This document shows positions 3,721 through 8,598 of a DNA stretch of 21,714 bases, one piece after another. The position numbers and the translations under genes are program-made. Within the stretch, counting starts at the first letter, position 1. Each line of letters opens with the position of its first letter. Below the pieces are notes generated by a model. The model saw only the letters and a program-made list of their open reading frames with translations, was not told where the DNA came from and did no database searches. This stretch comes from an uncultured archaeon. GTDB lineage: Archaea > Asgardarchaeota > Jordiarchaeia > Jordiarchaeales > Jordiarchaeaceae. The stretch is taken from contig CAZECW010000029.1 of the NCBI GenBank assembly GCA_964510585.1, positions 1 through 21,714 on the forward strand. Reading direction: 5' to 3'.

Positions 3721-4266
3721 CTATTTTTTGTGTTGCTCTCTGTCTGCAAGGGTAAACCCAATCTCTAAGGCTCGAGTGTTTATGTTGGGATGTTTTACTG
3801 TTTCCCTCACGGCTTTAAGTATGGTTTCTTTCTTGATTATTCCTGTTATTGCCACCAAGAAGCCTAGTAATATCATGTTGGAGTAGAGGTTGCTTCCTAG
3901 CTCTTTTTCTGCCAGCTCTGAGGCTGGCACCGGGTAAATTTTCACGTCTTCAAATGGCCAACTCCTCACCAAAGTAGAATCTACTATTACTATTTTGTTC
4001 TTCTTTATTGCGCCTCCCTGCTTGTCTACTGCTTCTTGAGAGGTGAAAACGTATATATCGGCATCTATAGCTCCTGGATAATCAATTTCTTCATCAGATA
4101 TTACTACTTCGGTCCAAAGATCTCCGCCCCTCACTTTTGCCCCGTAGGACGTAACTTGCGTTGCAATTTCTCCCTCATATATGGTGGCTGCCCTAGCCAA
4201 TAGTTCTCCCATAGTTATGACTCCTTGACCTCCGGAGCCAACGATGCGAATTTCAGTTCTCACCAT
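3721..4266 (-). CDS. korC: 2-oxoacid:ferredoxin oxidoreductase gamma subunit
   Basis: IRIVGSGGQGVIT, SYGAKVRGG, VVISDEEIDYP, NMILLGFL and NTRALEIGF motifs. The start overlaps the beta-subunit 3' end. Confidence 0.93.
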   Translation of the reverse strand: MVRTEIRIVGSGGQGVITMGELLARAATIYEGEIATQVTSYGAKVRGGDLWTEVVISDEEIDYPGAIDADIYVFTSQEAVDKQGGAIKKNKIVIVDSTLVRSWPFEDVKIYPVPASELAEKELGSNLYSNMILLGFLVAITGIIKKETILKAVRETVKHPNINTRALEIGFTLADREQHKK

Positions 4267-5086
4267 TTTCTGTCCACCTTATTTTAGTATATTGTTCCGA
4301 TAATTCGGGAGCGGTCTTCTCAACAAACTCACCCACCACTATTTTTTGGCTAAGCTCCTCTGCTGAGAGCCTTTTAGCCTCTTCTTTGCCCACCATGATT
4401 CCTTGAAGCCATTTTACCAAGTCAACTGGGTGCCTTACTTTAATGAGGGGGCCGTAACGTACGGGGCACGGTGAAAGCACTTCAATGAATGAGAATCCCT
4501 TCCTCTGAAGAGCCTTCTTAATGGATCTGATGAGTTGTCTCACATGCAGAGTTGACCATCTTGCCACATACGTTCCACCCGCCGCCTCCACGAGTTTACA
4601 CAAATCAAAGGGGTTTTCTAGGTTGCCATAAGGCGTGGTATCAGTTCTCAAACCATGGGGAGTTGTTGGAGCCACCTGTGCCCCTGTCATTCCATAAATA
4701 AAGTTGTTTACACAGATAACTGAGAGTCCAATGTTCCTTCGGGCTCCATGAATGAGGTGATTGCCCCCAATGGCTGACAGGTCTCCGTCCCCCGAGATAA
4801 CAACCACGTTCAGTTCGGGGTTTGCCAGTTTTAAACCAGTGGCAAAAGCTATGGGCCGTCCATGCGTCGTGTGAAGCACATCCGTGTTAAATAGGGGACT
4901 GGGTATCCAACCCGCACAGCCTATCCCGGAAACGAAGGCCACTTTTGTGAAGTCGAGGCCCAACTCGTCTATTGCTCTAAGAATACACTGGGCAATGACT
5001 CCGTCACCACAGCCTGGGCAATGGGGGAGAGGTAGTGTTTCTGGCCTAATGTACTTCATTAATGGATGCACGGATTTTCCACTCAT
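4253..5086 (-). CDS. korB: 2-oxoacid:ferredoxin oxidoreductase beta (TPP-binding) subunit
   Basis: CPGCG, SGIGC, HTTHGRPIAFATG, GDGD...NN TPP motif, YGMTGAQVAPTT and EVLSPCP. ATGA overlap with the alpha stop, preceded by an AGGAGG RBS. Confidence 0.94.
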   Translation of the reverse strand: MSGKSVHPLMKYIRPETLPLPHCPGCGDGVIAQCILRAIDELGLDFTKVAFVSGIGCAGWIPSPLFNTDVLHTTHGRPIAFATGLKLANPELNVVVISGDGDLSAIGGNHLIHGARRNIGLSVICVNNFIYGMTGAQVAPTTPHGLRTDTTPYGNLENPFDLCKLVEAAGGTYVARWSTLHVRQLIRSIKKALQRKGFSFIEVLSPCPVRYGPLIKVRHPVDLVKWLQGIMVGKEEAKRLSAEELSQKIVVGEFVEKTAPELSEQYTKIRWTENGEN

Positions 5087-6246
5087 GAGGACGCCTCCTT
5101 TCTTATGGTTTCCAAAACATATTTGGGGTTATGTATGGCTCCCAGAATCTGGGGAGGCAGAAACCCAACCTCTGCCACTCCACAGGCTGCACTTCTCACA
5201 TAATCCAGAATTTGCCCCATATTATTCTCCAAAACTATGATTTTATCCACCTGCTCCGCTATTTTCGCAATTTCCCGCCGAGCAAAAGGCCAAATGGTAA
5301 CAAGTCTAACACATCCCACCCTAATCCCCTCCATTCTTGCTTTTTTCAACGCCCATAGTGTGGATCTAAAGGGGCTACCGTATGTCACCAAGACAATTTT
5401 GGCATCATCAACTTGAATCTTTTGCAATCTTACAATTTCATTCCGGTGTTTCTCAAACTTTCCATAAATTCTCTTAATCAAATGGTCCAAGTCCTTTGGG
5501 TCACTGACTTTCCGGTATCCCAACTCATCGTGACAAGAGCCGGTAACATGAACCCGGAATCCAGATCCAAACGCAGGCATGGGAGCCACATCCTCACTTA
5601 GGAAAAAAGAGATTTCACCCTTTAAAGCGGGCTTTTTTCTATTTATTATTGGGATGTCCCAACTTGGCCTAATGACAACGCTCTCCCTCATGAAACTAAC
5701 ATAGGCATCAGTCAAAAGGATTACTGGGGTTCTTAAAGCCTCAGATAAATTAAACGCCTCCACGGTAAAATCAAACATGTCTTGGGGTGAGGATGGTGCA
5801 AGAACCAATATGGGATACTCTCCATGGGCACCATGCCTAGATTGCATCACATCCCCCTGCAAGGGCACCCCCACCTGTCCAACGCCGGGTCCTCCTCGCT
5901 GAACATCCACTATCACACAGGGGGTTTCGGTCTGAACAGCGTAGCCTATTCCCTCCTGCATTAGGCTGAAGCCGGGGCCGCTGGTCGCCGTCATAGATTT
6001 TAGACCCGCCCAAGAGGCTCCTATGATTGATGATATTGATGCTATCTCGTCCTCCATCTGTATGCTGATTCCCCCCACTTTGGGCATCTTTAAAGCCATA
6101 ACCTGACCTATCTCTCTTGCGGGAGTAATGGGATAAAATGCGAAGAACCTGCAGCCCGCAGCTAATGCTCCCTCTGCACAAGCCACATTTCCTTCCAAGA
6201 AATCTACACGTTTACCTAATTCACTGGACAGAAATATTCCTCCCAA
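5083..6246 (-). CDS. korA: 2-oxoacid:ferredoxin oxidoreductase alpha subunit
   Basis: GNVACAEGA, YPITP, QMEDEIAS, TATSGPGFSLMQE, DVQRGGP and ENNMGQI motifs. The start is uncertain: TTG 6246, or CTG 6231 downstream of a GGAGGA RBS. Confidence 0.94.
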   Translation of the reverse strand: MGGIFLSSELGKRVDFLEGNVACAEGALAAGCRFFAFYPITPAREIGQVMALKMPKVGGISIQMEDEIASISSIIGASWAGLKSMTATSGPGFSLMQEGIGYAVQTETPCVIVDVQRGGPGVGQVGVPLQGDVMQSRHGAHGEYPILVLAPSSPQDMFDFTVEAFNLSEALRTPVILLTDAYVSFMRESVVIRPSWDIPIINRKKPALKGEISFFLSEDVAPMPAFGSGFRVHVTGSCHDELGYRKVSDPKDLDHLIKRIYGKFEKHRNEIVRLQKIQVDDAKIVLVTYGSPFRSTLWALKKARMEGIRVGCVRLVTIWPFARREIAKIAEQVDKIIVLENNMGQILDYVRSAACGVAEVGFLPPQILGAIHNPKYVLETIRKEASS

Positions 6247-6463
6247 AATGTTGGATGTATTCTACCTGATTCTGTATGGTTTCTTTAACTTTTAAAGTTG
6301 TGACACCAAACTATTCCAGTTAACACAGACAATATCAGGGGATGGTGGGAAGGCGTATTTTATAAATCAGTCCCTTTTTTTAGTTGCTGGAACCCTTTTT
6401 GGCAATAATATTAAAATATTTCTTGTCCCTATCGGTTACCATACTTTTAATGGAGATGGGTGC

Positions 6464-6676
6464 TTGCAAAAGGCGAATATAATTGTTGACCCCTCAAAAT
6501 GTCGAATGTGCTTGCAGTGCCAGATTTTCTGCTCCCTCCTGCACGAGGGAGAGGCGAACCCCTCAAAGGCTAACCTAAAAATCGAGAAAGGCGCTATTAC
6601 TTTCCTTGAGACCTGCAGGGAAAACTGCAGTTTCTGTGCTGACTACTGTGCCTACCAAGCATTAAAACCCAAGTAA
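6464..6676 (+). CDS. Short 4Fe-4S dicluster ferredoxin associated with the AOR
   Basis: CRMCLQCQIFC and CRENCSFCADYC give 8 Cys. TTG start after GGAGATG; ends 23 nt before the AOR gene. Confidence 0.88.
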   Translation: MQKANIIVDPSKCRMCLQCQIFCSLLHEGEANPSKANLKIEKGAITFLETCRENCSFCADYCAYQALKPK

Positions 6677-6699: not shown

Positions 6700-8598
6700 A
6701 TGGAGTATTATGGTTATGCGGGTGCGGTTCTAGACTTGAACCTAACCACCGGAGAAAAGGAAGTTATCCCCCTAGAGGCCGATTGGATTAACGACTATAT
6801 TGGAGGAGCGGGTTTAAGCTTTAAACTTTTCAGCCAGTACCAAAAACCCAAGGTGGACCCCCTATCTGAGGATAACGTTATTGTTCTTGGTGTGGGCCCA
6901 ATAGTGGGCACCGGGGCACCTTTAGGTTCCAAGGTTTTTGCAGTGACAAAATTTGCAATACCTGCTTCTGAGGATGGGAAACACTACGTAACCACCGCTA
7001 TTGGGGGCTTCAAAAGGTTCGGACTCATGATGAAGAGGGCGGGATTCGACCACCTCATCATTAGAGGTAAATCCCAAAAACCAGTTTATCTCCACATTAA
7101 AGATGAGGAAATAGAAGTCAAGGACGCCTCCCCCCTTAAAAGCTGCGATACCTATCAAACCACCGAAAAACTCCTCTCCCTATACCCCAGCTCGGGTGTG
7201 ATTGCTAATGGTCCTGCTGGCGAAAATCTGGTTAGACTCTCACTGACCATAGTTGATGGTTTGGGAACCTTGGGTCGAGGAGGCTTAGGTGCGGTTCTGG
7301 GTTCCAAAAACATTAAAGCAATTGTCGCTCAGGGCACTGGGGGAATAAAGGTAGCCCGGCAGAAGGAGCTATTCAAAAAGGCCAAGGAAATAGTAAGCCT
7401 CATAAAATCCCAGGACATTTTCAAAACCGCTCAAGATATGGGAGCCCACGTCTTCTGGGAGATGATTTACCTCAAGAACATGTCCTCTGGAATTTGGACT
7501 AAGGATAAGTTCAACGAACTCTACGGGATGGTTCCATTCACAAAATCCAGACTGATTTCCGAGGCCTGTGTATCCTGTCCCATAGGCTGCAAGACTCAAC
7601 ACCGAGTCTATGAAGGCCCATTGACCGGCACCGAAGTGAAGACCACCCACTTCATAAACACTGCTAATCTGGGCCAAAAACTGGAATTGGAGGATTACCG
7701 TGAAGCCCTCAAGCTGGTTGACGCATGTAACAGAGCAGGCGTGTGCTTGTACACCTTCTCAGAAATGGCGGACTACATATCTCGGCTTCTCAAAGAGGGC
7801 AAAATAACCAACGAAGACCTTTTCGGCTTCACTCTTGAAAGAAACTCGGATAGCTATTTAGAATTCCTAGAAAAAATAAAAAATAGGGAAGGCATCGGAG
7901 CTATAGCCGCCGACGGTTGGTTTGCTCTCTCCCAACATCTAGAGTACGACGCTCTCATCCACTATAAGCATAGTCGAGGAATAGTTAAGGGAACCGACTG
8001 CATATTTGACGCCCGATTCAATAGGTTGGACTCCTCCATGGTTTCCCAAGTGGTGAATCCCAAGGGAGGTTTCCAAGCTTGGGGCAACTTCGGCGGCAGA
8101 CTAACCACCCAGGACGTTCCAGAATTATACAACACACCCGAAAAAGAAAATCTAGGAAGATTGACTGCCCAATCAGAGGATTGCATGATGGTTCTAAACT
8201 CCATAGGTGCCTGCTACGTGATTGTTAACACCCTCTCAATGTTTGGATACCCCATACTCAAAACACTCGCAGAGGTATATGGTTATATAACAGGAATAGA
8301 CGTTGAGCCTAGGGAATTAAAATTGAAGGGTGAACGTTGCTTCAACCTCTACAAAATGTTGAATGTGCGGGAGGGCTTCAACAGAAGCGATGACCGCTTT
8401 CCCAAGGTGTGGCTCGAACCCAAAGAAACACCCGAAAGAACCCTAACCCTCAAAACCCTCTACGCTAAGAAAGATGTAGACGAGCAAATGCTGGAACAAA
8501 TACTCGACGAGTATTACCGTGAGAGGGGCTGGGATCTAAAGAAGGGGATCCCCACCCCCGAAAAGTTAACTTCCCTGAAACTAGATTACCTAAAATAA
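6700..8598 (+). CDS. aor: Tungsten/molybdopterin aldehyde:ferredoxin oxidoreductase (AOR) family protein with an atypical active site
   Basis: YIGGAGL, MKRAGFDHLIIRGKSQKPVYL, GPAGEN, GRGGLGAVLGSKNIKAI, CVSCPIGC (C290/C293/C297) plus the fourth FeS Cys in NSIGAC (C505), ERxFN and DEYYRERGWD..GIPT. Confidence 0.93.
   Translation: MEYYGYAGAVLDLNLTTGEKEVIPLEADWINDYIGGAGLSFKLFSQYQKPKVDPLSEDNVIVLGVGPIVGTGAPLGSKVFAVTKFAIPASEDGKHYVTTAIGGFKRFGLMMKRAGFDHLIIRGKSQKPVYLHIKDEEIEVKDASPLKSCDTYQTTEKLLSLYPSSGVIANGPAGENLVRLSLTIVDGLGTLGRGGLGAVLGSKNIKAIVAQGTGGIKVARQKELFKKAKEIVSLIKSQDIFKTAQDMGAHVFWEMIYLKNMSSGIWTKDKFNELYGMVPFTKSRLISEACVSCPIGCKTQHRVYEGPLTGTEVKTTHFINTANLGQKLELEDYREALKLVDACNRAGVCLYTFSEMADYISRLLKEGKITNEDLFGFTLERNSDSYLEFLEKIKNREGIGAIAADGWFALSQHLEYDALIHYKHSRGIVKGTDCIFDARFNRLDSSMVSQVVNPKGGFQAWGNFGGRLTTQDVPELYNTPEKENLGRLTAQSEDCMMVLNSIGACYVIVNTLSMFGYPILKTLAEVYGYITGIDVEPRELKLKGERCFNLYKMLNVREGFNRSDDRFPKVWLEPKETPERTLTLKTLYAKKDVDEQMLEQILDEYYRERGWDLKKGIPTPEKLTSLKLDYLK

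Follow-up and report, generated by a model that had tools for sequence, protein, structure and literature searches.

A mini-ferredoxin gene and a remodelled AOR/WOR-family gene encode a putative two-subunit oxidoreductase in a Jordiarchaeales archaeon

We analyzed a stretch of DNA of 21,714 nucleotides (the window) from an uncultured archaeon of the Jordiarchaeales (Asgardarchaeota), which is positions 1 to 21,714 of the forward strand of contig CAZECW010000029.1 in assembly GCA_964510585.1. The window contains a gene that we call AORx, encoding a member of the AOR/WOR family with a remodelled active site, and just upstream of it a gene encoding a small Cys-rich protein that we call the mini-ferredoxin. 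An earlier note on this DNA had drawn attention to AORx and to changes in its active-site motifs; the mini-ferredoxin gene is absent from that note and is new here. The two genes are:

6464..6676, forward strand: mini-ferredoxin, truncated WorS-like partner, 70 aa, TTG start codon, 8 Cys
6700..8598, forward strand: AORx, WorL-type large subunit, AOR/WOR family, single open frame of 632 aa

We propose that the mini-ferredoxin and AORx together form a functional two-subunit cytoplasmic W- or Mo-bis-pyranopterin oxidoreductase from an uncharacterised AOR/WOR clade, with an apolar pocket and with His317 in the metal-ligand column; in our judgement this proposal has an even chance of being right. 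AORx appears to be neither a canonical aldehyde oxidiser nor a member of the BamB or YdhV clades.

AORx has the fold and cluster ligands of the AOR/WOR family

AORx contains the Pfam domains AFOR_N (3e-53) and AFOR_C (1e-49), both above their cut-offs. An AlphaFold2 model made with 138 homologs had a predicted local distance difference test score (pLDDT) of 95.8 and a predicted template modelling score (pTM) of 0.95. AORx has both of the features by which AOR/WOR family members are recognized, namely the three-domain AOR fold and the AFOR_N/AFOR_C pair, and is a member of this family.

Matches of AORx to sequences of solved structures in the PDB span 1e-55 to 1e-33. The top matches are AORs sensu stricto (9mqx, 3.5e-55; 9g7j, 1.9e-53; 1aor, 2e-52), with FOR, the Aromatoleum AOR, BamB, WOR83 and WOR5 at lower ranks; the BamB match (5.9e-40) covers the N-terminal two thirds only. 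Comparison of the model with every solved AOR/WOR structure using Foldseek gave template modelling (TM) scores of 0.79-0.85 with none outstanding. The best NCBIfam match of AORx is the YdhV equivalog model at 196 bits, against a cut-off of 868, and the archaeal GAPOR model (GAPOR_Arch) scored 21 bits against a cut-off of 1300. The AORs sensu stricto (1aor from Pyrococcus furiosus, 9g7j from C. autoethanogenum and the bifurcating WOR 9mqx) have the same three-domain fold as AORx (TM 0.84-0.85) and are its best sequence matches (about 1e-53, 26-28% identity). They also share its four [4Fe-4S] cysteines and its GRGG..GSKN.KA motif.

The earlier note had described these cysteines and this motif as intact, and both a motif search and the alignment to 1aor agree. 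The [4Fe-4S] ligands C290, C293, C297 and C505 of AORx correspond to C288, C291, C295 and C494 of the AOR from Pyrococcus furiosus (PfAOR), so that all four cysteines expected of the family are present. The GRGG..GSKN.KA motif is complete, with GRGGLGAV starting at residue 192; the first three cysteines lie in and after CVSC, which starts at residue 290.

The second shell of the AORx active site is replaced

Equivalences between AORx and PfAOR were taken from a HMMER alignment to PDB 1aor. The second-shell residues for aldehyde oxidation are Thr243, Glu313, Tyr427 and His448, together with a relay formed by Tyr312, Tyr452 and Glu311 (PMC12096430, PMC13328260). All seven are changed in AORx, which sets it apart from the AORs sensu stricto: T243, E311, Y312, E313, Y427, H448 and Y452 of PfAOR correspond to A249, H317, F318, I319, F436, Q459 and F464. 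AORx therefore lacks the Thr243, Glu313, Tyr427 and His448 set of the aldehyde-oxidising AOR/FOR/GAPOR-type enzymes. Polarity is removed from the shell by the change of Tyr to Phe at three positions, of Glu to Ile and of Thr to Ala. Because the second-shell residues are mostly swapped for apolar ones, the pocket of AORx is predicted to be largely apolar. Aldehyde oxidation by the canonical mechanism appears unlikely.

The motifs HFIN (317-320) and NRAGVC (344-349) lie where the earlier note had placed them, and NSIGAC and GSK, which it had also named, are at 500-505 and 76-78. That note had also claimed that the catalytic Glu313 and His448 are replaced and that AORx is not a standard aldehyde oxidase. 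The alignment supports both claims, with I319 and Q459 at the two catalytic positions and every second-shell acid/base residue named in PMC12096430 and PMC13328260 replaced. The reported replacement of RGACH by KGGFQ stands as well, but the motif lies at 455-459 and not, as had been given, at 456-460, an error of one residue. Judged from this alignment, the remodelling of AORx goes further than the earlier account.

Outside the second shell, C447, K450 and R76 of PfAOR correspond to F458, W461 and K78 of AORx, and in the cofactor region D338, D343 and D489 correspond to N344, C349 and N500. R193 of AORx is the equivalent of Arg186, and the Arg182 column holds Gly189. Both pseudo-symmetric pterin motifs of AORx read N-x-x-G-x-C (NRAGVC, nucleotides 7729-7746, and NSIGAC, nucleotides 8197-8214). 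Compared with the AORs sensu stricto, AORx has 5-6 extra residues (ASEDGKHY) in the loop that precedes the equivalent of the Asn93 region, and further insertions, specific to its clade, lie at about 257-268, 508-511 and 580-588.

The remodelled site is common to orthologs that are 76-93% identical to AORx. This conservation, together with the purifying selection described below, argues that the remodelling is not the result of chance or of an alignment artefact.

Remodelled sites appear to be common among AORx relatives

We wished to place these changes within the family and aligned 179 representatives, at no more than 55% identity, of the nearest ~270 AOR/WOR members. This sample is biased towards AORx. 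The alignment was made with L-INS-i in place of a fast MAFFT alignment, which put the EYET and GGCH columns wrongly. Remodelled sites appear to be common among the relatives of AORx: none of the core four residues (T243, E313, Y427, H448) is kept in 71 of the 179 representatives, and all four are kept in 13.

The earlier note had read the Asp and Arg changes as a loss of pterin contacts. This reading is not supported, since these are ordinary states in the family. At D338, 117 representatives have Asn against 39 with Asp; at D489, Asn (62) again outnumbers Asp (37); and at R76, Lys (95) is commoner than Arg (71). CN..G.D is the reading both in the solved AORs 9mqx and 9g7j and in three of the six canonical paralogs from the genome of AORx itself (C215, C99 and C114). 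The Asn residues at the D338 and D489 columns and the Lys at the R76 column thus follow the prevailing state of the family and are no sign of pterin loss in AORx, which probably contains pterin. The D343 column contains Cys in 39 of the 179 representatives, often across whole clades.

In the 138-sequence alignment, AORx (P0001) matches every column that is nearly invariant across the family. A 14-sequence alignment of the clade, reaching down to 41% identity, has invariant residues at K78, G192, G195, G197, A198, G201, K203, K206, A207, N344, G347, G456-G457 and C505, and G503 is nearly invariant. The AORx clade and a sister clade at 41-43% identity also have in common derived residues (W253, W266, Y275, Y386, W407, R487, T489, K552 and Y588) that canonical AORs lack. 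Such shared derived residues suggest that AORx represents a constrained, distinct type of active enzyme.

Two of the relatives have features of their own. In P0005, the Gly at the position of C290 resembles the change described for the [3Fe-4S] cluster of WOR4, and Ile is found at the position of His317. P0007 seems to be chimeric, with its first ~200 residues like the N-domain of a canonical AOR and the remainder almost identical to P0006. In the supplements of PMC13328260 we found no Asgard entries and no relevant accession from which to take a WOR clade number.

His317 occupies the column of the YdhV metal ligand

Only two residues in the family, BamB Cys322 and YdhV Cys336, are described as ligating the metal from the protein (PMC12096430). 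We made a multiple alignment that took in AORx, canonical paralogs, clades with an 'S-C' motif and YdhV from E. coli K-12. In this alignment YdhV Cys336 shares a column with AORx His317, the equivalent of PfAOR Glu311, and the cysteines of the 'S-C' motif from the other clades fall in the same column. Pairwise alignment with HMMER put BamB Cys322 near K314 with adjacent gaps, an assignment that is ambiguous by about three residues, and the multiple alignment was preferred. AORx has no further Cys between C297 and C343. With no Cys in the ligand column, AORx lacks the protein Cys metal ligand that defines the BamB and YdhV clades.

The earlier note had offered BamB as a precedent, with C349 as a possible counterpart of its Cys. 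This suggestion fails: C349 is replaced by Gly in P0003-5, the closest relatives, and by Asp in P0011, and YdhV Cys336 aligns instead with His317. His is present at position 317 in four of the five members of the query clade, and it is the commonest residue in this column (14 of 35) in the surrounding clade of 35 representatives, which has a support of 1.0. We regard His317 as the best candidate for a catalytic or metal-proximal residue. A likeness between the proton-relay helix of BamB (E251, H255, E257, H260) and D246, H250 and E254 of AORx was considered and dropped because HMMER left this helix unaligned.

BamB (class II benzoyl-CoA reductase, 4z3w) and YdhV resemble AORx in that they are without the aldehyde second-shell residues, and they are the only such clades described (PMC12096430); reviews single out these two alone in this respect (PMC13328260, PMC12096430). 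The pocket of BamB is apolar with few proton donors, and that of AORx is predicted to be apolar. In contrast to AORx, both have a Cys metal ligand in the column of His317, and AORx scores lower against them than against AORs in both sequence and structure. The Cys-type clades are also located in a separate part of the tree, and Bam or Ydh accessory genes were not seen with AORx among open reading frames (ORFs) of at least 80 aa in the window. A search with language-model features placed YdhV clusters nearest to AORx, which we treat as a lead only.

The mini-ferredoxin is a predicted two-cluster partner of AORx

The mini-ferredoxin gene ends 23 nt before the start codon of AORx. The predicted protein has the motifs CxxCxxCxxxC (13-23) and Cx3CxxCxxxC (51-62), and with eight Cys it can hold two [4Fe-4S] clusters at most. 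It has weak Fer4 matches that are below the Pfam cut-offs (Fer4_6, 1.4e-4; Fer4_10, 5e-3). The mini-ferredoxin is 94-96% identical across orthologous loci, and it has relatives of 77-80% identity in other metagenomes, in line with the divergence of AORx relatives.

Paralogs of the mini-ferredoxin are found directly upstream of AOR paralogs at four other sites in the same genome (C24, C212, C76 and C181), with E-values of 7e-9, 5e-7 and 2e-6 and, for a partial match of 34 residues on C181, 0.011. Counting AORx, five of the ten AFOR_N paralogs in this genome are preceded by a paralogous 8-Cys mini-ferredoxin of ~70 aa. Of 13 loci from other Asgard genomes, 11 likewise have an equivalent 8-Cys ORF ahead of their AOR-like gene. 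A 2-oxoacid:ferredoxin oxidoreductase (OFOR) operon on the reverse strand (3721-6246) has alpha, beta and gamma genes and no delta (ferredoxin-type) gene, and the mini-ferredoxin gene, co-oriented with AORx, is the sole small 2x[4Fe-4S] gene near it. The positions of its paralogs indicate that the mini-ferredoxin belongs with AOR-family genes and not with OFOR.

Class II WORs are defined by a WorS subunit with four [4Fe-4S] clusters (PMC13328260). Many canonical metagenomic relatives adjoin such a WorS, with 16-17 Cys in about 165-195 aa. The Class II WORs PfWOR5/ASOR and CbGOR are like AORx in that the large subunit adjoins a small Cys-rich ferredoxin-type subunit and is presumably linked to ferredoxin. 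However, their WorS carries four clusters, whereas the partner of AORx, with 8 Cys in 70 aa, falls short of this with two at most. AORs sensu stricto differ from AORx in having either no partner or a four-cluster WorS. From the layout of its cysteines and its place in the genome, we regard the mini-ferredoxin/AORx pair as a WOR resembling Class II, the small subunit of which is truncated and has two clusters.

An apparent fusion of the two kinds of subunit was seen elsewhere. An 893-aa ORF at L065:9317-11995 appears to join an N-terminal Cys-rich ferredoxin-like part (CQICQNFC...) to an AOR-family body with LEYET, and would be a natural fusion of a small and a large subunit.

AORx and the mini-ferredoxin are under purifying selection

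We calculated the ratio of nonsynonymous to synonymous substitution rates (dN/dS) between the source genome and two congeners. The ratio was 0.085-0.10 for AORx and 0.09-0.11 for the mini-ferredoxin, compared to 0.05-0.15 for the OFOR subunits and 0.01-0.03 for the mutase, AbfD-like, ligase and ACAD genes of the window. Thus, both AORx and the mini-ferredoxin are under purifying selection.

The genome that was searched is 3.78 Mb in size and 96% complete. It contains genes for cofactor supply, namely MoaA, MoaC, MoaE, two copies of MoeA and a WtpA-like binding protein. The ten AFOR_N paralogs are on C215, C99, C114, C87, C181, C76, C24, C33, C212 and C29 (loci L001-L010). Six of them have EYET; those on C24, C33 and C212 and AORx itself do not.

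Two genomes assigned to the same genus (G038 and G028), one of which is closed, have neither AORx nor the mini-ferredoxin, nor any ortholog of the AbfD-like gene (best match 46%). Only a subgroup of the genus therefore has this island. Scanning a collection of genomes with AORx gave only orthologs of 93% identity. In a scan of metagenomes, AORx as a single-protein query gave no matches, and an alignment used as the query gave 80 loci, among which L049 (42% identity) alone represents the sister clade.

Gene neighborhood of the mini-ferredoxin/AORx pair

Upstream of the pair are an intergenic region and the OFOR operon:

3721-4266, reverse strand: OFOR gamma
4253-5086, reverse strand: OFOR beta
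5083-6246, reverse strand: OFOR alpha
6247..6463, no strand: divergent intergenic region, 217 bp, AT-rich, between OFOR alpha (reverse strand) and the mini-ferredoxin/AORx pair (forward strand)

The Pfam domains POR_N/PFOR_II, TPP_enzyme_C and POR occur across the three OFOR genes. The intergenic region has TATA-like stretches, tttataaatc near 6350 and aatattaaaatat near 6408, and presumably contains a pair of divergent promoters. The OFOR operon is divergent from the mini-ferredoxin/AORx pair, and a gene for an AbfD-like dehydratase is convergent with the pair. Nearby genes encode a PaaK-like ligase, an ACAD, an isobutyryl/methylmalonyl-CoA mutase and a CoA-transferase. A Pfam scan of the 19 ORFs of at least 80 aa in the window found no BamC-I-type genes.

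We compared the proteins of the window, using tblastn, with 13 Asgard loci that contain homologs of 35-38% identity; the sole neighbour in common was an SDR, present in two of the loci. Nor do the AOR paralogs in the same genome have consistent neighbours in common. AORx synteny is lost beyond close kin, and a functional link with the OFOR and acyl-CoA genes is therefore not supported.

The sister-clade locus (L049:4779-11947, RCNG010000269.1) is on a high-GC bacterial contig. Its genes stand in an operon-like row that begins with an OYE-type flavoenzyme and continues with two HGD-D-type subunits, a metallo-beta-lactamase (MBL)-fold protein and the AOR-like protein; an ADP-forming acyl-CoA synthetase and a multihaem cytochrome c are encoded downstream. 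The stretch of L049 that was scanned showed no gene for an HGD activator. The CoA-ester and radical-dehydratase settings of AORx and of this locus are two anecdotes that give a lead towards CoA-thioester chemistry, and we do not count them as evidence.

Discussion

If the mini-ferredoxin and AORx form a working enzyme, the architecture of the family suggests how electrons would move through it. An external carrier, probably ferredoxin, would exchange electrons with the two [4Fe-4S] clusters of the mini-ferredoxin. These would hand them to the [4Fe-4S] cluster of AORx (C290, C293, C297 and C505), which would link to the metal-pterin centre. The substrate would probably be a different, hydrophobic one, with electron or proton transfer taking place in the second shell. 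The motifs, the partner gene, the selection on both genes and the cofactor genes are more in keeping with a metallo-pterin enzyme that works than with one in decay.

Several points weigh against this proposal. Neither the AORx clade nor the non-canonical radiation around it has a characterised member, and cofactor binding is inferred from motifs alone. Changes of Tyr to Phe and Glu to Ile are also expected of a dead but folded protein. In the query clade the loop equivalent to that of Arg182 lacks a basic residue, and Trp stands in place of K450, although both columns are variable across the family. The nearest clade varies at positions 317 (H/I), 318 (F/L/S) and 349 (C/G), and the relative P0005 has Gly at the cluster ligand C290; such variation would fit a relaxed constraint on catalysis. 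Finally, the order of genes around AORx, with the OFOR and acyl-CoA genes, is retained only in the 93% orthologs and gives no clue to the substrate.

One alternative is that AORx is still an aldehyde/carboxylate oxidoreductase that acts, by means of His317, His250 and Gln459, on aldehydes released by OFOR or on semialdehydes from acyl-CoA pathways. AORx adjoins the OFOR operon, and the OFORs of Thermococcales are thought to supply aldehydes. AORs sensu stricto are the best matches of AORx in sequence and in structure, and all characterised AOR/WOR clades outside BamB and YdhV, with the exception of WOR4, oxidise aldehydes in vitro (PMC12096430). However, the four core residues and the three relay residues are all replaced, mostly by apolar ones, and the linkage to OFOR is not kept beyond the 93% orthologs. 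In addition, the genome already has six paralogs with the EYET motif. The WOR4 protein of P. furiosus is informative here. No aldehyde oxidation has been found for it, which has been attributed to a single change of Tyr to Trp in the second shell (PMC12096430). WOR4 keeps most of its second-shell residues and has a Cys-to-Gly change giving a [3Fe-4S] cluster, whereas AORx has kept all four Cys. With these points taken together, we consider it unlikely that AORx oxidises aldehydes.

A second alternative, which we consider improbable to the same degree, is that AORx is an inert paralog, either with an Fe-S cluster only or with bound cofactor and no turnover, that is kept as an electron-transfer or scaffold protein. 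The full loss of polar second-shell residues resembles inactivation, and the variability at 317-318 and 349 in the closest relatives and the missing C290 of P0005 would agree with this. The module is also dispensable, as two genomes of this genus do without it. By contrast, the dN/dS of ~0.09 over the full length of AORx is no weaker than that of the OFOR subunits, and a dedicated cluster-carrying partner gene has been retained. The GRGG..GSKN.KA motif, which is associated with pterin and Mg, and the residues N344, G347, G503 and C505 show little or no variation down to 41% identity, and the many conserved residues specific to the clade suggest a new constrained site, not decay. The cofactor-less option, which the earlier note had raised, is less likely given that pterin biosynthesis genes are present in the genome.

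A bolder version of the two-subunit enzyme that we propose is that AORx and its relatives are a third catalytic type in the family. Such a type would be without both the Glu/His/Tyr/Thr shell of aldehyde oxidisers and the Cys ligand of BamB and YdhV. It would combine an apolar pocket, a conserved His317 as a W/Mo ligand or as the sole proton donor, and a two-cluster ferredoxin subunit to reduce a hydrophobic substrate at low potential and with water excluded; this substrate might be an acyl- or aryl-CoA from the fermentative pathways encoded nearby. We put this forward as a speculation that is more doubtful than either alternative above.

It seems highly improbable that AORx, like BamB, is the subunit of a class II aryl-CoA reductase in which a Cys ligates the tungsten: the missing aldehyde residues and predicted apolar pocket recall BamB, a PaaK-like CoA ligase and acyl-CoA enzymes are among the neighbours, and the one 42% sister-clade gene lies behind an OYE and two HGD-D genes, but His317 and not Cys is in the YdhV ligand column, C349 is not conserved, BamB ranks below AORs in sequence (6e-40 versus 1e-55) and in structure, the Cys-type clades branch elsewhere, and the scanned ORFs of the window include no BamC-I-type genes.

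By itself, AORx adds one further uncharacterised clade to a known family. A physiological role has been defined for 5 of 92 AOR/WOR clades, and most are hypothetical (PMC13328260, PMC12096430). AORx and the survey (71 of 179 representatives with none of the core four residues) suggest that much of the family is unstudied and probably has non-aldehyde chemistry. Remodelled AOR-family proteins are abundant in Asgard archaea, with up to ten paralogs in a genome, and metabolic reconstructions of these archaea routinely annotate every such gene as 'aldehyde:ferredoxin oxidoreductase'. The minimal two-cluster partner is frequent with such AOR-like genes and is not covered by current class definitions. 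The mini-ferredoxin/AORx pair is a compact, well-folded target in the search for a new tungsten or molybdenum reaction.

In related Asgard genomes, a study of Freyarchaeia has noted AORs in eight copies, and 'unclassified' AORs with high expression (PMC11291895). In our own searches of related Asgard genomes, several matches to AOR-family or AbfD-like genes (G028:C413, G028:C27, G004:C3 and G038:C1:3299151-3300599) had a single in-frame TAA; these genes may be pseudogenes, sequencing errors or cases of recoding.

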